Assembly (NCBI GenBank): GCA_963766075.1
Contig: CAVYAN010000041.1
Span: 1 to 64,000 of the forward strand
DNA: 64,000 nt
Reading direction: 5' to 3'
Origin: an uncultured cyanobacterium
Lineage (GTDB): Bacteria > Cyanobacteriota > Cyanobacteriia > Leptolyngbyales > Leptolyngbyaceae
Position 1 is the stretch's first letter; each line of letters starts with the position of its first letter. Made by a program: the position numbers and the translations under genes. Of this stretch, positions 2,663 to 58,782 are shown one piece after another. Below the pieces are notes generated by a model. It had not been told where the DNA came from. It ran no database searches and saw only the letters and a program-made list of their open reading frames with translations.

Positions 2663-2888
2663 ATGTCAGAACTACTCAAAAGAATCACCATTAACCCCAG
2701 CGCAGTGTGGTGGTCGTCCCTGTATTCGCGGTATGAGAATTCGCGTGTCGGATGTTCTCGATTTATTTGTAGCTGGGCTGAGTGCTGAAGCCATCCTGGA
2801 AGAAATGCCCGATCTGGAGGCAGATGACCTGAAAGCCGCGCTATTATATGCTTCCCGTAAACTCGATCATCCTGTGTTGGTGGCATGA
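2663..2888 (+). CDS. DUF433 family antitoxin (VapB45-like) with an apparent +1 frameshift near 2698
   Basis: ATG 2663 reads MSELLKRITINP, then a shifted frame reads AQCGGRPCIRGMRIRVSDVL..EDLKAALLYA, the DUF433 signature. Confidence 0.8.
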
Positions 2889-3226
2889 CAACGATCTGGA
2901 TTGATGCTCATTTGTCACCCGCGATCGCAACCTGGATTACCAATACATTTAGTGTAACAGCCGTAGCTTTACGGGATCTTGGGTTGAGGGATGCCGAAGA
3001 TCCGGCAATCTTTGAGGCGGCAAAAGCCCAAGGAGTCATATTCATGACCAAAGATAGCGACTTTGTTGATTTGGTTGATCGACTTGGCGCACCACCCCAA
3101 ATTATTTGGTTGACTTGCGGAAATACATCAAATGCCCGGTTACAGGAGATTTTAAGCTCGGTTTTACCGAAAGCCCTAGAGTTATTACGTTCTGGTGAAA
3201 TATTAGTGGAGATTAGCGGCGATTAA
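2885..3226 (+). CDS. DUF5615 PIN-like toxin (VapC45-like)
   Basis: WIDAHLSP..D..IF..A..TKDSDF..GN motifs; ATGA overlap with the DUF433 gene. Confidence 0.85.
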   Translation: MTTIWIDAHLSPAIATWITNTFSVTAVALRDLGLRDAEDPAIFEAAKAQGVIFMTKDSDFVDLVDRLGAPPQIIWLTCGNTSNARLQEILSSVLPKALELLRSGEILVEISGD

Positions 3227-3233
3227 TACGACG

Positions 3234-3317
3234 GCATAACCCGAGTGGAGCGGAATGGCGAAAGCTGGGGGGCGATCGGGGAAATCCAACGGCATCCGCT
3301 CACTCGGAACGATCAAC
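3234..3317 (+). other. Degenerate integron attC-like site
   Basis: R'' GCATAAC; L'' GAGTGGAG pairs with L' CTCACTC leaving one extra base; CGGA-A-TG pairs with CATCCG with a bulged A; R' degenerate (GATCAAC). Confidence 0.55.
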
Positions 3318-3465
3318 GGCCTATGCTGCATCCACCCGCCGAGAGAAAGGGTGCTGGGAGCACTATTCCGGATCACTTTCCCCCGCCAAGCCAGGTTCCT
3401 CAGAGTCAGATTCCTCTAGGCCAGGTTCCTCAGGTAAGGCGCTTTCAAGCTGCGGGACCTGGGGA

Positions 3466-49837: not shown

Positions 49838-51652
49838 ATGGCGAAGTTTACTGACATTCTCCGCTACTACCGACACTATCTGCCCATTACGGTATTTAGT
49901 GTGGCAGCGATGAGTGCGTTTGAAATTATTGATTTATTTGGTCCCTATGCGATCGGACAGATTTTGAATGTATTGTCGGGGCAGGCGATCGATGCCCCTT
50001 TGCAAGCCCTAACCCAAACGTTGGCAAACCTAACGGGGCAGACTGTCAGTGCCAATTTTTCGCTGATTGTGCTGCTCGTGCTCGTGTGTCTTGTCTCTGT
50101 GGGGCGCGCGCCGATTCAGCCCTGGTTAGGTCCATGGTTTAACTGGGATGCAGCCTTTCGGGCACGGCGAGAGCATGCCCAAAAAGCGTTGGAAAAAGTG
50201 TTGACTCTGCCGCTGGAGTTTTATGACGAGAATAATCCCGGACGGATTGCGGCGCGGGTGGCTAAGGGATTGTCGAATCACACCTGGACCTATCCAGAGG
50301 TGACGGGACAGTTGTTTCCCAAATTCTTTCGAGTGGTTGGTATTTTTGTGGTGATTTGGCTGATTGATTGGCGCATTGCTATTTTATTGCTGGTGTCGTT
50401 TATCGGCATTCTGTGGATGGATCTGGCGGGTCTGAAGGCGATCGCCCAGCGGGAAGAACGCCTGGATAAATACATGGAGGACACTGAAAGTCGCAATTCT
50501 GAAATCATCACCAACATCAAAACCGTCAAAGCATTTGCCACAGAGGCGGAAGAGTTAAAGCGCCAAACCACGCGGCTGGAGCGGGAGTTCAAGGTGCTGG
50601 ACTATCGTATCCATATGGATTACGTCAAGTTGGGGACCTATGAACGGACCATTGTCCAAACCTGCACATTTTTGGTGCTGGCTTTAACCCTGTGGGCGAC
50701 GGCAGCGGGCCGGATTTCCCTGGGACATTTTGTCACCACGCTGACGATTTCCAGCATGGCCTATGCCGAGGTGGAGCCGATTTGCAACATTGCTGAACAC
50801 TTTGCCAAACGCTATGCCTCGATGATTCGGTTTCACCAGTTTATGCAATTGCCCGTCGGGCAGGATGCGGGCAGTTTGGTGGTGGATGCCAAGGCACCCG
50901 CCTACGAATTCACCGGCAAGGTGCATTTTGACCATGTGCGGTTTAGCTACAATCCGGGTCGGCCTGTGTTGCAGGACATTAATCTGCTGATTGAACCTCG
51001 GCAAACGGTAGCCCTAGTGGGGCGATCGGGTTCGGGGAAATCAACCTTGGTGAAGTTGCTGTTCCGCTATTTTGAAGCGGAGTCAGGCAGTATTCTGATC
51101 GATGGTCAAGATATTCGCCGTTTGGATGTGACGGGCTATCGCAAACGATTGGCGATCGTGCACCAGGAGGTGGATGTGTTCAACGGTACCTTGATGGATA
51201 ACCTGCTCTATGGCAATCCCCAGGCCACTTTGGAGCAGGTGAAGGAAGCCTGCCAGATTGCGCAAGCGGATGAATTTATTCAGCACTTACCCGATGGCTA
51301 CGGGACGATTGTTGGTGAGCGTGGGGTACGGCTATCGGGTGGCCAACGGCAGCGTTTGGGGATTGCCAGGGCGCTGATTATGAATCCTGATGTCCTGATC
51401 TTTGATGAGGCGACATCGAGTTTGGACTATGAATCGGAACGGGCGATTCAGTTGGCCATGCGATCGCTGCTGGGTACCCGCACCCTGATCATCATTGCCC
51501 ACCGTTTGAGTACTGTGCGCGAAGCTGACCAAATTGTGGTTCTTGATCAAGGTCGCATCCTAGAGGTGGGCAATCACGAGCAACTGCTAACCCAGGGAGG
51601 GATTTATCAACGCTTGCACTCCCTGCAAGAAACGGGTGAACTACTAGCCTAA
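49838..51652 (+). CDS. ABC exporter (fused permease and ATPase)
   Basis: TM domain, GRSGSGKS, LSGGQRQR, FDEATS, IAHRLST. Confidence 0.93.
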   Translation: MAKFTDILRYYRHYLPITVFSVAAMSAFEIIDLFGPYAIGQILNVLSGQAIDAPLQALTQTLANLTGQTVSANFSLIVLLVLVCLVSVGRAPIQPWLGPWFNWDAAFRARREHAQKALEKVLTLPLEFYDENNPGRIAARVAKGLSNHTWTYPEVTGQLFPKFFRVVGIFVVIWLIDWRIAILLLVSFIGILWMDLAGLKAIAQREERLDKYMEDTESRNSEIITNIKTVKAFATEAEELKRQTTRLEREFKVLDYRIHMDYVKLGTYERTIVQTCTFLVLALTLWATAAGRISLGHFVTTLTISSMAYAEVEPICNIAEHFAKRYASMIRFHQFMQLPVGQDAGSLVVDAKAPAYEFTGKVHFDHVRFSYNPGRPVLQDINLLIEPRQTVALVGRSGSGKSTLVKLLFRYFEAESGSILIDGQDIRRLDVTGYRKRLAIVHQEVDVFNGTLMDNLLYGNPQATLEQVKEACQIAQADEFIQHLPDGYGTIVGERGVRLSGGQRQRLGIARALIMNPDVLIFDEATSSLDYESERAIQLAMRSLLGTRTLIIIAHRLSTVREADQIVVLDQGRILEVGNHEQLLTQGGIYQRLHSLQETGELLA

Positions 51653-51724: not shown

Positions 51725-51852
51725 AAAGGGCTTTGTTGCATAAGTCAAAAAGAGACGCGTTGCGGATGTGGTATTGAGCTTTCATAGCAGGTTTTTGTAT
51801 GGTAACTGAAATTTACCATGCCTCTCCCGCACCCAATCCTTCTTTCATACAA

Positions 51853-51963
51853 CAACGCCTGTTACAAGTGAAGGTAGCGAATCCAGTGCAATGGCTTTTG
51901 GAGGTGATGACTGATGCAAACCCATCAGTTGAGTCCGGCGCAATTGCGGCAGATCGGTATTGA
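51853..51963 (+). pseudogene. 3' remnant of a PIN-type toxin gene
   Basis: Reads QRLLQVKVANPVQWLLEV, resembling the C-terminus of PIN proteins that precede this antitoxin type; no start or 5' part. Confidence 0.4.
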
Positions 51964-52117
51964 GGCTTTGGTGCAGGCGTTGGGTGCGGTGGGGATGGCG
52001 CGGTTTTTGCAGCAGTTTGAGCGGGGCAGCGGGGACTACACCCGCGATCGCCATACGGTTTTAGCTGACATTAACTTGGAAGCGGCGATCACTCAAATTA
52101 AGCAATCCCGAGAGTGA
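51914..52117 (+). CDS. Small putative antitoxin
   Basis: IGIEALVQALGAVGMARFLQQFERGSGDYTRDRH motif; GGAGG RBS. Confidence 0.65.
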   Translation: MQTHQLSPAQLRQIGIEALVQALGAVGMARFLQQFERGSGDYTRDRHTVLADINLEAAITQIKQSRE

Positions 52118-52127
52118 ACAGGTAAAC

Positions 52128-52215
52128 GTAAAAAGACGTGCTGGGAGTTGGGATGAAGGTCAGTCAGGAGATTGACTAGGCGAGGAGAGAGATTATGGTC
52201 AAACAGAAGTTTCCT
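52128..52215 (-). pseudogene. 5' remnant of a DUF5615 toxin
   Basis: Minus strand reads (AGG)KLLFDHNLSPRLVNLLTDLHPNSQHVF; start codon lost and truncated. Confidence 0.65.
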
Positions 52216-52259
52216 GCCGCGCTTGTCAAGGTCTTTTGTTCGTGATGACCTCTGGTCGG

Positions 52260-52460
52260 TCATTGACCATCGGCGGCATAGGCGAGGCAGGCGAGAATAT
52301 CGGTGGGGGTGAGGTAGGGAAAATCGGCCAGGATTGCCTGGGGGTTCATGCCGGAGGCAAGGTAGGAGAGGACATCATAGACGGTGATGCGCATGGGGCG
52401 GGTGCAGGGTTTGCCGCTACGTTTGTCCGGTTCGAGGGTGATGATGTCTTGGTCGTTCAT
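52260..52460 (-). CDS. DUF433 antitoxin, slightly degenerate
   Basis: IITLEP.KRSGKPC.R.MRITVYDVL.YLASGM..ILADFPYLT..DI.ACL.YAAD. Confidence 0.8.
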   Translation of the reverse strand: MNDQDIITLEPDKRSGKPCTRPMRITVYDVLSYLASGMNPQAILADFPYLTPTDILACLAYAADGQ

Positions 52461-52576
52461 GGGGGGGAAGTGCGATCGCTTCTCATTTTAGTAAGGTGAT
52501 TCTCCGGTGGAGAGGCTGCGCCAACACTCCCAAAACCACGAGGCTTTTCGTGTCAGGTTGCCTATCTCTCAAGATA

Positions 52577-52649
52577 CAAGGGTTGGCACCGCCCACAATC
52601 AGTGAACCGTATCATGTTGGTAGCTTTGGTGGGCAATGCCCGCCCTGCA
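52577..52649. repeat. Inverted pair of degenerate GTAGGGTGGGCA..GCCCAC-type REP units
   Basis: CAAGGGTTGGCACCGCCCAC and GGTGGGCAATGCCCGCCCTGCA. Confidence 0.5.
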
Positions 52650-52783
52650 GAATTTCTACTCGCTGGACATCTTGTAACAGCGGAGTAATATAGCCGCAAC
52701 GCCAAATTCAAAAATTTAAACGGGGTCGAAGGCTTCCGCCATTGACCGAAATGGGAGCAGGGTGTTTCCTGTAGTTTGAGCTT

Positions 52784-53019
52784 TTGTCTAAACGCTGCTC
52801 ACGTACAGAAGCGCTGCTTTCCATGTTGGAGACCCATGAAGATTGCCTTGCTTGTTTGGAACAATTGCGCTGGCGGGGTACACCCACTTGTCCATACTGC
52901 GGAGAAATTAAAGCAACTTCGTATAAAAAAGAACATCGATACAGATGCAATGGCTGCTTTACTTCGTATAGTGTGACAGTCGGAACATTATTCCATAAAA
53001 CCCATGTGGACTTACATAC
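52784..53019 (+). pseudogene. IS1595-family zinc-ribbon transposase N-terminal fragment, cut by IS630
   Basis: CL..LEQLRW...TCPYCG..RYRCNGC...SVTVGTLFHKTH. Confidence 0.75.
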
Positions 53020-54131
53020 TACCCAGAGCGCCAAATAGTTAACATGGTAATGTAGCTATTCCAGGAAGAAGCCATGCAACTGAAAGATGCTCGACACCTA
53101 TCTCCAGATGCGCAAGAAGCCCTGCGTTATCGGGTGGTCAGTGCAATTGAGAATGGCATGAGCAAGTCAGAAGCGGCTAGGGTCTTCAGTGTTTCAAGAA
53201 CGGCTGTGCATCATTGGACGAAAGCCGTCAACGAACAAGGCCGTCGGGCATTGAAGGCGAAAAAGCGAGGGCGATGCAGCTCATCTCGGTTAGCCCCTCA
53301 CCAAGCGGCAACAACGGTTCGCCTCATTACCCAGAAGTGTCCAGAACAATTAGACTTGCCGTTTGCGTTGTGGACGCGCGAGGGAGTGCGCCAATTGATC
53401 GAGCAGCGCTATGGCATCTCGGTTTCGGTCTGGACGATTGGCCGGTATTTGAAACGATGGGGGCTGCCCCCTCAGAAACCGTTGCGACGAGCTTATGAGC
53501 AAGACCCCAAAGCGGTTAAACAGTGGTTAGAGGTGGATTACCCCGCGATTGTCAAGCTCGCAAAACAGGCGGGTGCCGAGATACACTGGGGTGATGAAAT
53601 GGGACTGCGCTCAGACGACCAAACCGGACGCTCCTATGGCAAGCGAGGGCAGACTCCGGTGATTCCTGGCACCGGACAACGATTTCGTTGCAATGTGATC
53701 TCAACGCTGAACAATCACGGCGCCCTGTACTTCAAGTTGTTCACACAAAACTTCAATGGCGACGTGATGCTGGACTTTTTGCGTCGCTTGATTGGGCAGA
53801 TTCCCCAAAAGGTATTTTTGATTGTGGACAAGCACCCGGTGCATCTTTCGGCGAAAGTCCATCGTTGGTTGGAGAAACATGCTGAGCGGATTCGGATGTT
53901 TTTGTTACCCTCCTATAGTCCAGAACTCAATCCTGACGAGTTGCTCAACCACGATGTCAAAGCGAATGCTGTGGGGCGAAAACGAGCGAAAACCAAGCGT
54001 GAGATGATGGAGAATATTCGTCATCATTTACGTCGTCGGCAACGACAACCAGAAATTGTAAGACGCTTCTTTCATGAAGAACATGTGACTTATGCGGCCT
54101 AAAAAGTGTTCACTATATCCTGCTCAGGTTA
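53020..54131 (+). mobile_element. IS630-family insertion sequence
   Basis: Imperfect 25 bp TIRs TACCCAGAGCGCCAAATAGTTAACA (53020-53044) and TGTTCACTATATCCTGCTCAGGTTA (54107-54131) match at 18/25; TA ends. Confidence 0.85.
53074..54102 (+). CDS. IS630 transposase
   Basis: HTH plus winged helix (LWT..V..LI), WGDEMG, IVDKHPVH, LPSYSPELNPDE. Confidence 0.93.
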   Translation: MQLKDARHLSPDAQEALRYRVVSAIENGMSKSEAARVFSVSRTAVHHWTKAVNEQGRRALKAKKRGRCSSSRLAPHQAATTVRLITQKCPEQLDLPFALWTREGVRQLIEQRYGISVSVWTIGRYLKRWGLPPQKPLRRAYEQDPKAVKQWLEVDYPAIVKLAKQAGAEIHWGDEMGLRSDDQTGRSYGKRGQTPVIPGTGQRFRCNVISTLNNHGALYFKLFTQNFNGDVMLDFLRRLIGQIPQKVFLIVDKHPVHLSAKVHRWLEKHAERIRMFLLPSYSPELNPDELLNHDVKANAVGRKRAKTKREMMENIRHHLRRRQRQPEIVRRFFHEEHVTYAA

Positions 54132-54295
54132 TGCGTGAAGAGAACACATCGGAATCGTTGCCCGTTATCACAGTTAGCAATGCTGATCGGCTTCTGAACG
54201 ATTCTGAATATCGAGGGCGATGTGTTGAAAGTTTGACTAAAATCGTACTTGATATTGATACTTATCGGGGTGCAAGACGGATCTTCATTCCATAG
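54132..54295 (+). pseudogene. 3' half of a DUF5615-related PIN-like gene
   Basis: MREEN..SLPVITV.N.DRLL...YR.RCV..L..IVLDID.YRGARRIFIP; the 5' half is replaced by IS630. Confidence 0.55.
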
Positions 54296-54337
54296 TATCA
54301 AACATTGTCAATCTCGTTCACATTGTTGAAAAACACG

Positions 54338-54424
54338 GCATAACAATCCCGTTGCACGCCGACCGTATTAAGTTGGCCGTTAAGACCGCAAGGCTTCTGC
54401 GGCGGGTGAACGGGGCCGTTATGT
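54338..54424 (+). other. Integron attC-like recombination site, 87 bp
   Basis: R'' GCATAAC, 5 nt, L'' CGTTGCAC ... L' GTGAACG, 5 nt, R' GTTATGT; extra base in L'' and a bulged A in CCG-A-CCG/CGGCGG. Confidence 0.75.
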
Positions 54425-54488
54425 GGCTAAGAGGGTGTTTTAAAAGTGAGTGAGAGCGTAGAAAAGCTTATCAGTATTAAGCATTAAG

Positions 54489-54679
54489 CCTGATTGACTG
54501 ACAAATCTCTTGAGCACCTTGCCCAGAAAGGGCTTCAGTCTTTCCGGCGGCTATGCCTTGAAAGCTACTGCTGGAAGAGATTTTAGGAATCTACCAAGAA
54601 ACCCGAAATCGACCAAACCTGACCAAAACCTGAAACCTTTACACAATGGGTTTTCCAGGACTTTTGTCAGTCAACCAGG
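54489..54679. mobile_element. MITE-like element with 17 bp terminal inverted repeats
   Basis: CCTGATTGACTGACAAA and TTTGTCAGTCAACCAGG (1 mismatch); no transposase between them. Confidence 0.7.
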
Positions 54680-54723
54680 GTTGTGGCAGCAAGTTAAGAA
54701 TTGTCGGTTTTCGTAAATACGTA

Positions 54724-54753
54724 TTGACACTGTACATACGCCTTGTCTAGAAT
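54724..54753 (+). promoter_or_regulatory. Sigma70-type promoter of the brnT-antitoxin pair
   Basis: TTGACA (54724-54729), 18 nt, TAGAAT (54748-54753). Confidence 0.65.
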
Positions 54754-54754
54754 A

Positions 54755-55058
54755 ATGGGTATAGACGCTTACTTTGTGCTGAGTTGGCATTACCTTTATC
54801 TGGAATGCAGAAAAGGCGCGGATTAATCTCAATAAGCACGATGGGGTTAGCTTTCAGCAAGCGGCTGAGGCATTTTTTGATCCATTCCTCATTCTGATTA
54901 ATGCCAGTCGCAACGATGAAGCAAGAGATGCCGTGATTGGCCTGGATACTCGCTATAACTTGCTCTATGTCGTGCATATTGAGCAAGAGGGGGATTGTAT
55001 TCGGATTATTTCTGCGCGTAAAGCAACCCGACAAGAGAGGATGAACTATGAAAGTTGA
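54755..55058 (+). pseudogene. BrnT family toxin with a +1 frameshift near 54785
   Basis: DAYFVLS, then shifted GITFIWNAEKARINLNKHDGVSF..F.DP..R..IG..VVH..IRIISARKAT..ER..YES. Confidence 0.8.
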
Positions 55059-55341
55059 AGCCTTGAAGAAAAGACTGGATAAGAATCGGCCGATGTCCAG
55101 TGTGACGATTCGGATGCCGGAAGATGTTGTGGAAGACTTGAAGCGAGTTGCACCACTGTTAGGTTTCTCTGGGTACCAGCCATTGATTCGCGCTTACATT
55201 GGGCAGGGATTACGCGCCGACTTAGAGCGATTTGAAGGTGAGACGGTGAGTGCATTGATTGCTAGCTTGAAGCGGCGGGGTGTGAGCGATGCCGTGATTG
55301 ATGAAGCGCTGAGCGAGGTTGTGCAAGCGGCAGCCAGCTAA
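55048..55341 (+). CDS. Antitoxin (BrnA/CopG-like ribbon-helix-helix)
   Basis: SVTIRMPEDVVEDLKRVA...GYQPLIRAYI; overlaps the brnT 3' end. Confidence 0.75.
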   Translation: MKVEALKKRLDKNRPMSSVTIRMPEDVVEDLKRVAPLLGFSGYQPLIRAYIGQGLRADLERFEGETVSALIASLKRRGVSDAVIDEALSEVVQAAAS

Positions 55342-55461
55342 TCCGTGAATAGAACATTATCAAGCAGAAGCTATCCAACAGGAGACTGCGGCCAGTTATC
55401 AGGCCAGAGTCTGAAACAGGGCCAGGTTTGTTAGTAATGCATCTGAAATGCATCTGAGTTT

Positions 55462-56637
55462 CTAGCCTGAAGCTCCTAGTCCAGCCAAATGGCAATGGCA
55501 GTCGGGCCGGGTGAGAAGAGATTCCGCCAGCGTATTGAGCACCGTAGCCGCGAGCATCCCGCCACCCACCGTACCCTCCAGGGTGATGTAGGGAATCGGG
55601 CTGTGGATCAGTTGCCGTTTCGCAGCGGGAGCGTGGCTGAAGCCGATGGGCAGGCCAATTACTAGAGCCGGAGCAATTTGTTGTTGGGCGATCGCCCGGT
55701 TGATCGCCAGCAATACCGAGGGCGCATAGCCCACAATCACAATGCTGCCCGCCGGAATTTTGGCAACGGCCCCCGGCCCCTGCTGCCAAAAGCATTGTTC
55801 AGCCGCCGGGGCATTATGCACATGGGGATCCTCAATCAGCACCGTAATGGCACAGCCCAGATTAGCCAGCCGGGTTTGATCCAGCGCCGAGGCCACGGCG
55901 GAAATGTCCACAATCACCTGACAGCCTGAACTGAGGGCCTGCTGTCCAGCGGCGATCGCATCAGCACTGCGGCGCACAAACGGGGCGATGCTCACATCCC
56001 CACAGGCCAACACCAAGTTGGACAAGAGATCGCGATCAATTTCAGAGAATTGAGACAAATCCGGCAGCAACCGCTCCAGGGATTCTTGAAAGGTCTCCGG
56101 ATGCTGATGCACGGGCGCATCCAGATCGTGCCAAAGCTGGGTTAATTCGCCCAGGTTAGCTTGGCTGTCGGCATCCAGTTGCTTAATCTGAGCCAGCACT
56201 TCCGCTTGCACGTCCTGGCAGTAATGATCTCGGCCCAACAGCCCTTCCAAGGCCAAGGCAGTGTGTCGCAACTGGGTCATTTGCCGCAGCACGGTTTGAT
56301 ACTGTCGCTGAAGCTGCTGGATCAAGGTAGGGGTTTGGTCCGCGTGGGGCACGCCTTCCAGCAATTGCTGAATATGGGAAAGCTGGAATCCCTGCTGCTT
56401 CAGGGCGACAATCCGCTTGAGCCGCTGGACATCCGGCTCGGTGTAAAGCCGATAGTTACTGGGCGATCGCGCCGGGGGTGGCAGCAATCCCAGTTGATGG
56501 TAATGCCGCACCATCCGGGGGGTCAGCCCACCCCCCACCGCATCGGTTAATTCTTTAATCGTCAGAGCCTCTTGAGTCCTCAGCGGCTCTTTAATCGTTA
56601 GCGGCATTACCATTTCCCGATCCTCTCCTTGAGCCAT
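55462..56637 (-). CDS. coaR: MerR-family regulator fused to a precorrin-8X methylmutase-like domain (CoaR/CorR); start uncertain
   Basis: LTIKELT..TPRMVRHYHQLGLL..NYRLY MerR HTH; CobH-like GLPIGF..AKRQL..GG; C-terminal CHC. Confidence 0.85.
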   Translation of the reverse strand: MAQGEDREMVMPLTIKEPLRTQEALTIKELTDAVGGGLTPRMVRHYHQLGLLPPPARSPSNYRLYTEPDVQRLKRIVALKQQGFQLSHIQQLLEGVPHADQTPTLIQQLQRQYQTVLRQMTQLRHTALALEGLLGRDHYCQDVQAEVLAQIKQLDADSQANLGELTQLWHDLDAPVHQHPETFQESLERLLPDLSQFSEIDRDLLSNLVLACGDVSIAPFVRRSADAIAAGQQALSSGCQVIVDISAVASALDQTRLANLGCAITVLIEDPHVHNAPAAEQCFWQQGPGAVAKIPAGSIVIVGYAPSVLLAINRAIAQQQIAPALVIGLPIGFSHAPAAKRQLIHSPIPYITLEGTVGGGMLAATVLNTLAESLLTRPDCHCHLAGLGASG

Positions 56638-56664
56638 TATGTCCCGATTCTAGCGCCTGGGGGC

Positions 56665-56696
56665 TTGACCTTAACATTAATGTCAAGGTTTACCCT
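56665..56696 (+). promoter_or_regulatory. MerR-type promoter/operator for coaT
   Basis: TTGACC, 20 nt spacer, TACCCT; dyad ACCTTAACATT/AATGTCAAGGT (56668-56689, 1 mismatch). Confidence 0.85.
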
Positions 56697-56723
56697 GGGA
56701 GGGTTATCTACTGGAGTAAACCC

Positions 56724-58782
56724 ATGGTGGCTCGCTTTCGACCGCAGGTAGGGCTGGATCCCGAGGGTGTTGCCGCCCTACTCTGCGGCCTGTGCGTGAT
56801 CGGGGGCTGGCTAGCGCTGCATTTTGCCTGGGTGGGCCTCGCCCTGCTGCTGTTACCGTTGGCCTACGGCATCGGGGGCTATGGCGGTGCGCGATCGGGA
56901 TTGACGACGCTGCTGCAGGAGCAGGAATTGGATGTTGATTTGCTGATGATTGTGGCGGCCTTGGGCGCAGCCGGACTGGGACTCTGGCAGCGGGACTATT
57001 TTTTGATTGTGGATGGAGCCGTCTTAATTCTGATTTTTGCCATCAGTGGCGCGCTGGAAAGCTATGCCATGGGTCAGACGGCGCGCAGCATTCAGAGTTT
57101 GATGAAGCTGACTCCCGACATCGCCCGCGTGTTGGCAGACGACGATCAGGAATCTCCACGGGCGATCGCCCAGTTGCGTGTGGGCGATCGCCTGCGGGTC
57201 AAACCGGGCGAACTCATTCCTGTGGACAGCCAAATTGTGGCGGGCACATCCACGCTCAATGAAGCCGCAATCACAGGCGAATCGATGCCCGTCACCAAAA
57301 CCGTCGGCGATGGCGTATTTGCAGGCACGCTTAATGGACAAGGTTCCCTTACTCTATTAGTGAATCAACCGCCGGAAAGTAGCCTGATTCAGCGGGTGAT
57401 TCGGTTAGTGGAAACCGCGCAACAGTCCGCCCCGCCCTCGCAGCAATGGTTGGAACAGGTGGAGCGGGGCTATGCCAAAGTCATCGTGCTCGTCGGTCTG
57501 GCGTTAGCGGTGCTGCCTCCCTTCCTCTGGCAGTGGGACTGGAAAACGACTATCTATCGCGCGTTGATTTTTCTGGTGGTGGCTTCCCCCTGTGCCCTGA
57601 TGGCGGCCATTATGCCAACGCTCCTGTCCGCCATGGCCAATGGGGCCAGACAGGGAATTTTATTCAAAAATGGGGCGCAGTTGGAGCGCCTGGGTCAGGT
57701 GCGGGCGATCGCCTTCGACAAAACCGGCACCCTCACAACCGGATCGCCCCAAGTGGTGCAGGTGATTGCGGCCTCTGGGTGGCAGCCCGCCGATGTTCTG
57801 CATCTGGCCGCTGCCCTCGAAAGCCACTCCGAACATCCCCTGGGACAAGCCATCTGCCGTGCCGCCTCGGCAAATTCGCTGCCCCGAAGCCCCATCACCG
57901 ATCCGATCACCGCTGTCCAGGCGATCCCTGGTCAGGGCATTCAGGGCTGGCTGGGGGCGGAGGCGGTGCGGGTCGGCACTGCCGCTTTTGTCACGACTGC
58001 AGATGCTGCGCCCCTGCCATTAGGAGCGGGAGCAGTGGCGGAATCGATGGCAAAATCGGTGACGAAATTAGCAGAGCGCGCAACTAAGACTGGATCTGAG
58101 GCCACAGATCGCCCCCGATCTAGTGGCTCAAGGCCAGGGCTTAGCCGCAGCGGGGCACACCGTTGTTTGGGTGGCGCGAGCTCAAGCTATTGTCGGCATC
58201 ATGGCGATCGCCGATACGCTCCGCCCCACCGCCGCCGCCACCATTGCCCACTTGCGGCACCTCGGCATTGAGCAGATAATTTTATTGACGGGGGATAATC
58301 CGGAAACCGCCCAGGCGATCGCTCAAGCCGTGGGCATCGATCAGGTCTATGCCGAACTCTTACCAGAGGACAAACTGCACCACATCAAACAGCTCCAACG
58401 CCGCTACAAAACCGTCGCCATGGTGGGCGATGGCATCAATGATGCTCCGGCCTTGGCGCAGGCATCCGTGGGTATCGCCATGGGCGGCAGCGGCAGCGAT
58501 GTGGCCTTGGAAACAGCCGATGTGGTATTGATGGGCGATCGCTTAGAAAAACTAATTGGGGCGATTCGGTTCGGGCGGCGATCGCAAACCGTCATCAAAC
58601 AAAATGTGGGGTTTGCGTTGCTTTGTATTGGTGGGCTGCTTATCACCAACTTCGCAGGCGATCTGACCCTACCCTTCAGTGTGCTTGGGCACGAAGGTTC
58701 TACGGTTTTAGTCACCCTCAGTGGGCTTCGGCTCCTCGGAACTCCCTGGACAATTTCCAAAAATAATATGCCCGCTGGCTAA
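56724..58782 (+). CDS. coaT: P1B-4 heavy-metal (Co/Zn) P-type ATPase with an apparent frameshift near 58100
   Basis: TGES, SPC, DKTGT and SEHP in ORF 56724-58271; TGDN, GDGINDAP and HEGST in ORF 58123-58782. Confidence 0.85.

Follow-up and report, generated by a model that had tools for sequence, protein, structure and literature searches.

The window analysed here (the whole 64,000-nt stretch, C41:1-64000, from a cyanobacterial contig, C41, with a total length of 97,211 bp) contains at positions 54338-54424 of the plus strand an 87-nt element that, judging from its sequence, its predicted folds and covariance models, is almost certainly a genuine integron attC site. A short run of toxin-antitoxin-type cassettes has probably decayed here, with this site as the last one still recognisable. 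If an integrase acts on the site at all, it would do so in trans, from an integron integrase gene (intI) 41 kb away on the same contig.

Sites of the attC type are roughly 57-141 nt long, have the core consensus RYYYAAC in the R'' box and GTTRRRY in the R' box, carry an extra base in the left inner box and are recombined as a folded bottom strand. All the parts named in the original prediction, namely the four boxes, the 5-nt spacers, the extra L'' base and the bulged A, can be read in the plus strand of this element: R'' (GCATAAC, 54338-54344), a 5-nt spacer (AATCC, 54345-54349), L'' (CGTT-G-CAC, 54350-54357, with the extra G at 54354), a variable loop (about 54366-54399), L' (GTGAACG, 54406-54412), a second 5-nt spacer (GGGCC, 54413-54417) and R' (GTTATGT, 54418-54424). 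Besides the extra G54354 there are two further single-base bulges, G54358 and A54362, and all three are on the 5' arm only. R'' and R' each match the consensus at 6 of 7 positions, with one departure each, and pair fully with one another (CATAAC/GTTATG). The covariance-model envelope of the site is 54334-54428. As predicted, the site starts 43 nt past a stop codon, the TAG (ending at 54295) of the ORF at 54092-54295. From the known attC mechanism, which we take to apply here, the crossover is predicted between G54418 and T54419; we infer that IntI would bind the site and cut at this position (in top-strand notation) and that the site could recombine with attI or with another attC.

Folding predicts a bulged hairpin on both strands, in which a small internal loop of 2-3 nt parts the R helix from the L helix. 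The bottom-strand hairpin expected for an attC site thus forms in prediction, but its stability is not significant: the exact bottom strand folds at -17.9 kcal/mol (z -1.73), and 13 of 200 shuffled sequences fold equally well or better. With flanks included, the z-scores are -1.06 and -1.21, and up to 33 of 200 shuffles are as stable. Hairpin stability by itself does not set the site apart from shuffled sequence. An Rfam scan of positions 52000-57000 at E-values up to 10 returned two weak, irrelevant matches and nothing relevant. That the site is more than a chance hairpin follows from its relatives (BLAST copies, covariation and model scores), not from its folding energy.

A BLAST search of the site against its own genome identified three further copies, on contigs C10, C31 and C37, with 73-76% identity and E-values from 2.6e-10 to 1.3e-4. 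A home-made scanner for R''/R' boxes plus a hairpin yielded 9,588 candidates, 185 of them with at least 20 anchored pairs; these were treated as leads only, many of them likely false, and covariance models took over. Eight oriented copies were aligned on a 22-pair structure comprising the R helix and the L stem. In this alignment, 88.6% of cells are paired (75.8% after shuffling) and two-sided changes occur in 11 of the 22 pairs (shuffled mean, 4.3), values that none of 500 shuffles matched. Sliding the partner by 1-3 columns reduces pairing to 35-48%. The compensatory changes include the sets CCCGTT/AACGGG, CCTGCT/AGCAGG and CAAT/ATTG, as well as a swap of CAC/GTG for GAG/CTC among copies, and the bulged G after the GTT of L'' (TG at the bulge) is invariant across all eight.

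Three covariance models were built. Model R1, with eight seeds that include the window site, finds 25 sites in the genome at E-values up to 3.5e-4 and scores the window site at 89.5 bits on the plus strand versus 22.3 bits on the minus strand. Model R2, built from 27 sites of this genome only, finds 31 sites on 20 contigs at E-values up to 9.2e-6, the window site scoring 83.5 bits; the expectation that a covariance model would pick out the site and further copies across the genome was thereby borne out with our own models. Model R3 was built from 24 sites with the window site left out, and it still assigns that site 79.6 bits (E about 1e-18), with 22 of 22 modelled pairs standard, although this leave-one-out is not perfectly clean, as the R3 alignment was made with R1, among whose seeds is the window site. 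On the opposite (minus) strand R3 gives 21.1 bits, an asymmetry of 58 bits.

Several observations identify this family as integron attC. Its members follow genes: 23 of 29 sites lie no more than 100 nt past the stop of a same-strand ORF of at least 50 aa (median distance, 23 nt), compared with 29% of 2,963 random positions (median, 205 nt); the count covers 29 of the 31 sites, the other two being at contig ends without an upstream ORF. The predicted association of copies with the 3' ends of ORFs therefore holds genome-wide. Pfam matches were obtained for 14 of the 21 scanned ORFs upstream of family sites (seven had none), and the families represented are GNAT, PAP2, HNH, AHSA1, NOV_C, AAA_18, DUF6399, ParE-like and PIN, together with DUF5615 (two ORFs, duplicates of each other) and DUF4926 (three). 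The family also forms arrays next to intI both in its own genome and in the related genome G017.

As a cross-check, we applied R2, with filters off, to 12,954 bp of NZ_CP066111.1, a plasmid that carries a class 1 integron. The model matches two of the three cassette attC positions, both on the cassette strand: the site after blaVIM-1 (L059:4908-4996; 37.1 bits, E 5e-8) and the site after aac(6')-Ib4 (22.6 bits, E 4e-4). The short aadA1 attC was missed, and no other R2 match below E 0.1 was found in these 12,954 bp. As judged by R2 score, the blaVIM-1 attC is close to the cyanobacterial family, well above the adjoining aac(6')-Ib4 site. Together with the covariation and the 79.6-bit R3 score, this cross-recognition of class 1 sites supports the identification as an integron attC in the predicted orientation.

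The site stands alone. With filters off, R2 finds only three attC matches on the whole 97-kb contig, at 3227-3321, 54334-54428 and 97129-97211, and between 44000 and 64000 at E-values up to 10 it finds the window site plus four matches below 12 bits. Since no other attC lies within 42 kb, the window site is solitary. A CALIN comprises at least two attC sites within about 4 kb, and this locus has one; it is not a complete integron either, the intI gene being 40.8 kb off with its array in the other direction. A single attC with an ORF and with no other att site or intI nearby is what defines a SALIN, and this is what is found here. Of the two alternatives offered by the original prediction, solitary or CALIN-type, the first therefore stands, with three matches on a 97-kb contig, and the second does not.

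The second attC in the window (3227-3321, plus strand) belongs to the same family and is weaker, with 40.9 bits by R2 and 41.5 bits by R3. It follows immediately on the stop codon of an intact DUF433/DUF5615 gene pair (2637-2888 and 2885-3226; 77 and 84 bits with the respective Pfam models) and reads GAT, not GTT, at the aligned R' position. This site lies next to gyrA, and some 10 nt past the GAT there is a TATGC able to pair with R''. Either a secondary-site (GWT) junction or degradation of the site could account for these features.

The original prediction described the site as lacking an integrase, and this is true of the 64-kb window: no intI or other tyrosine recombinase is found there, and the TIGR02249 and PF00589 models match C41 only at about 95.2-96.1 kb. 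It does not hold for the genome. A complete integron integrase gene is present on the same contig (C41:95200-96165, minus strand), 40.8 kb from the window site. Its product scores 464.6 bits with TIGR02249 (curated cut-off, 265), and all 14 control genomes stay below that cut-off. It is 51.9% identical to IntI1 and aligns over residues 4-312 with IntI4 (PDB 2A3V; E 5e-86), the alignment including a stretch that falls on the IntI-specific region. A family attC (C41:97129-97211, plus strand), cut by the contig end, lies beyond the 5' end of intI; the window site is on its 3' side, and the array of this intI runs the opposite way, to higher coordinates. Between intI and the first cassette genes there is also a near-perfect 112-nt hairpin (C41:96300-96411; L024:12300-12411) of -32.4 kcal/mol as DNA, with no spacer, no bulges and no R2 match, whose ends GCATAAC...GTTATGT are the same as R'' and R' of the window site. 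This hairpin may belong to attI or be an unusual attC.

Tails of intI, 45-78 codons long and four or five in number, occur elsewhere in the genome (on C17, two on C31, and on C65 and C8). Three of them (C17, C31 at 99.5 kb, and C65) have the same deletion junction, in which C41 position 95317 is joined to 96166, so that intI is lost from its start codon down to its last 38 codons, and the upstream region and cassettes are kept (C17:164431-164677, C31:99195-99845 and C65:48805-49365, each compared with C41:95000-96450). Either a platform already lacking intI seems to have been copied, or the same deletion breakpoints are used repeatedly. Contigs C41 and C17 are 95% identical over their final 1,049 bp (C41:96166-97211 and C17:164677-165723), a stretch with a 119-aa ORF, an 87-aa DUF4926 ORF and an attC truncated at the contig end; thus, the same first cassette follows the intact and the deleted intI.

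The gene upstream of the window site has been cut short. It is the 3' stump, the last 55 codons (54132-54295, plus strand), of a DUF5615/PIN-like toxin gene, recognised by homology to a 131-aa protein of the relative G012: 49 of 56 stump residues (88%) are identical to residues 76-131 of that protein, which scores 25.3 bits with DUF5615 (cut-off 23.8) and is encoded downstream of a DUF433 gene. By itself, the stump matches no Pfam family at E-values up to 0.1. The stump is the cassette gene belonging to the window attC. The earlier description of a PIN-like gene is therefore right as to kind, but what remains is a 55-codon stump cut by an insertion sequence, not a working toxin-antitoxin module.

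The insertion sequence is of the IS630 family (53019-54129, plus strand), with a transposase ORF at 53074-54102 (Pfam DDE_3, 117 bits, plus HTH_33 and HTH_Tnp_IS630), and it is flanked by TA at 53017-53018 and 54130-54131. Its ends were set by comparing the flanks of its two copies in the genome, the second of which (C8:96072-97187) matches the first over 1116 bp with 99.55% identity. What flanks the C8 copy is unrelated to the island around the window site and gives no sign of reciprocal exchange. The element sits at the junction of two different truncated genes. On its right, the toxin stump begins exactly at the IS630 end, the stump ATG overlapping the TA target copy. On its left is the 5' fragment (52784-53018, plus strand, 78 codons) of a small gene of the Zn_ribbon_IS1595 type (PF12760, 40.8 bits), whose 124-aa homologues extend past the IS630 break. 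The ORFs on the two sides join in frame, and they were considered as one split gene; this reading was rejected because the left homologues continue differently, to 124 aa, and the right part is a different, DUF5615-type C-terminus. In the relative G015, the homologue of the Zn-ribbon gene lies between two attC matches (46.2 and 54.4 bits) and is therefore a cassette gene there.

The island is bounded on the left by an ABC transporter gene, which ends at 51652, and on the right by a MerR-CbiC gene (55462-56637, minus strand). From left to right, it holds a small ORF (51914-52117) behind a 107-nt element, a DUF433/truncated DUF5615 pair on the minus strand, the Zn-ribbon fragment, IS630, the toxin stump, the attC, a repeat resembling a miniature transposable element (MITE) and a BrnT/BrnA pair. 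The 107-nt element (51753-51859) is conserved, with one copy on C5 (88% identity) and with the relatives G001, G002, G007, G011 and G020 among the matches listed (79-84%). The minus-strand pair (52093-52460) comprises a DUF433 antitoxin-like gene (52260-52460, 76.8 bits) and a truncated DUF5615 gene of 56 aa (52093-52263), which scores 24.6 bits and covers profile positions 2-28 of 110 only; it is a decayed toxin-antitoxin pair in the same island, on the opposite strand to the attC.

Downstream of the window site, the MITE-like repeat (54486-54695) has 27-nt terminal inverted repeats that are 81% complementary, and copies of it (79-87% identical) occur at C95:36572-36762, C95:38668-38874 and C47:1837-2026. 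It separates the attC from brnT (54789-55058, plus strand; BrnT_toxin, 82 bits), which is followed by a CopG/BrnA-like antitoxin gene (55048-55341, plus strand) with weak RHH, CopG and BrnA matches. The BrnT frame matches Pfam from its first residues, yet it has no ATG, GTG or TTG near its 5' end; the only listed start in this frame gives a 41-aa ORF (54933-55058). The BrnT/BrnA pair is possibly the next former cassette, and no attC was found after brnA by R2 with filters off. At 55372-55401, after brnA, an R''-like TATCCAAC and an R'-like GTTATCA are only 15 nt apart; the pair may be the scar of a collapsed attC, or chance. No second attC, attI-like platform or intI tail was detected in the island, nor was any similarity found between the island and the intI/attI platform of C41. 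The case for an array-remnant origin of the site is accordingly an indirect one.

How did a solitary attC come to be here? If the site is an attC, we consider an origin as the remnant of an array to be somewhat better than an even bet and direct insertion at a secondary site to be the less likely route; between the two, the remnant is probably to be favoured. The reason lies first in the DNA beyond the crossover. The 8 nt after GTT at the window site (ATGTGGCT) score 7.15 bits on a matrix derived from 21 other family sites, and only 0.03% of 142,107 genomic GTT contexts score as high; DNA that fits the family consensus at this position speaks for an array remnant and against a recent insertion at a secondary site. 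An attC x attC-type junction inside an array is likewise in keeping with the neighbouring genes, which are of cassette type to either side. The scenario would run as follows. A small row of toxin-antitoxin-type cassettes would originally have occupied the island; an IS630-associated deletion likely removed the 3' end of the Zn-ribbon cassette with its attC and, in the same event, the antitoxin gene and the 5' part of the toxin gene. The window attC would then have been left as the last recognisable site, and the intI 41 kb away would act on it in trans, if at all. As it stands, the cassette cannot move as a unit, because its gene is a 55-codon stump and no partner attC lies within 42 kb.

The main competitor of the array remnant is a SALIN formed directly. 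In the sections of the SALIN preprint drawn on here (10.1101/2022.09.11.507474), the term is defined as a solitary attC with an ORF and no other att site or intI nearby; as the route, the integrase inserts a cassette into attG, a genomic site that is not an att site and has the target GWT. Applied to the window, a circular DUF433/PIN-like cassette would have been inserted by IntI into an attG (5'-GWT-3'), and IS630 and the MITE would have eroded the locus later. We regard this as unlikely, though a real contender. On the one hand, the locus resembles the SALINs of that source: the window site is a lone attC accompanied by an ORF, neither intI nor a further att site is near it, it lacks a partner for at least 42 kb, and an intact IntI is encoded elsewhere in the genome. 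Singletons are common in G017 (14 of 89 sites at a 10-kb threshold), and the attC at 3227, after its intact DUF433/DUF5615 pair, reads GAT and so has the possible look of an attG junction. On the other hand, the attG route as set out there predicts chromosomal DNA 3' of the G of R', whereas the 8 nt downstream of the window site fit the attC family; cassette-type genes lie on both sides (the Zn-ribbon gene, a cassette in G015, and BrnT/BrnA downstream), so that the neighbours look like former cassettes; and the cassette gene is a stump cut by IS630. The left junction, which would decide, was lost to the IS630-associated deletion. We also looked in 30 relatives for an empty site between the ABC transporter and MerR-CbiC genes; none was definable, as synteny is not conserved, and the listed relatives with both genes have them on different contigs. 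As to the predicted cassette traffic into scattered chromosomal sites, attCs are indeed scattered in this genome (20 contigs), but the window junction does not look like a fresh insertion at a random chromosomal site.

That the window site is simply part of the main array of the intI at 95 kb, whether through great length or rearrangement of that array or through an error of assembly, is very improbable. The site does share its contig with a complete intI, its R''/R' ends (GCATAAC/GTTATGT) are identical to those of the 112-nt hairpin at C41:96300-96411, and many attC sites fall at contig ends in what is a fragmented assembly. However, the site is on the wrong side, 40.8 kb beyond the 3' end of the minus-strand intI, whose array attC is at 97129 on the plus strand; no attC match occurs between 54428 and 97129 even with filters off; and the immediate bounds, the ABC transporter and MerR-CbiC genes, are ordinary chromosomal genes. 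Least credible of all is a non-integron element that resembles attC, either a transcription terminator or a REP- or MITE-like palindromic repeat of cyanobacteria: small repeats are abundant in cyanobacterial genomes, the folding energy is statistically no better than that of shuffles and there is no Rfam match, but known class 1 attC sites are picked up by the family model, co-oriented arrays of family members lie right beside intI genes, the restriction of bulges to the 5' arm gives a 58-bit strand asymmetry, and no T-run directly follows the hairpin.

Among known systems, sedentary chromosomal integrons (e.g., the repeats of Vibrio cholerae) have one attC family per genome and small-gene or toxin-antitoxin cassettes. 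The genome studied here likewise has many attCs of one family, with small genes and toxin-antitoxin modules as cassettes; unlike V. cholerae, it has several platforms with deleted intI plus many solitary sites, not one large array. With the blaVIM-1 attC of NZ_CP066111.1, the window site shares the order of boxes, the 5' arm TAACAA...GTTG(G/C)AG...CGG, the extra L'' base and the position just past the cassette gene, whereas the blaVIM-1 site belongs to a working resistance cassette in a mobile, plasmid-borne class 1 integron beside IntI1.

Integrons have been reported in Cyanobacteria (PMC2426708 and PMC4889954, as far as the parts of these sources used here go). In the relevant portion of Cury et al. 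2016 (PMC4889954), a CALIN is defined as at least two attC sites within 4 kb and no intI nearby, half of the CALINs are found in genomes encoding IntI, IS-mediated erosion is among the origins proposed for them, the erosion or splitting of arrays is a route to solitary sites, and single attC sites are discarded as possible false positives. The window site resembles the CALINs described there in having no integrase nearby and cassette-type genes of unknown or toxin-antitoxin function; it differs in that one attC is detectable, with filters off, and in that the family validates the single site. A dedicated cyanobacterial attC covariance model has been described by Ghaly et al. 2021 (PMC8352920), according to whom, in the passages used, attCs within Cyanobacteria share sequence and structure. 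R2 behaves alike, with matches in all 31 genomes searched, but was built from this genome's own sites only.

Among these 31 related genomes, the number of R2 matches ranges from 1 to 98 each at E-values up to 0.001, and an integron integrase above the cut-off is encoded in 17, the present genome included. In G017, which is assembled as a single contig, there are 89 matches, some in co-oriented arrays that abut intI genes, whole or fragmentary, at 318-319 kb, 2606 kb, 2641 kb and 3560 kb; at a 4-kb threshold, 22 of the 89 are singletons. The closest BLAST relative of the window site, at G012:C93:4701-4795 (83% identity), has an intI tail about 3 kb away, and the two are arranged divergently, as is usual.

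Taken alone, the window locus is of little consequence: a toxin gene that is no longer functional precedes an attC that is well formed but stranded, and published work already covers both attC models for Cyanobacteria and solitary attC sites (SALIN). It is nonetheless a validated example of the isolated attC, the kind set aside by Cury et al. 2016 (PMC4889954) in the portion used here, and it illustrates one possible origin of such sites, IS erosion of a small cassette row, not fresh insertion. The genome-wide picture adds to the case that integrons are routine and dispersed in this cyanobacterial group. More speculatively, and we hold this to be doubtful, the chromosome as a whole may be a distributed integron, in which one intact IntI would serve, in trans, several intI-deleted platforms and dozens of solitary, recombination-competent attC sites, which, far from any attI, would function as landing pads and as the points of breakage in cassette exchange and in large chromosomal rearrangements.
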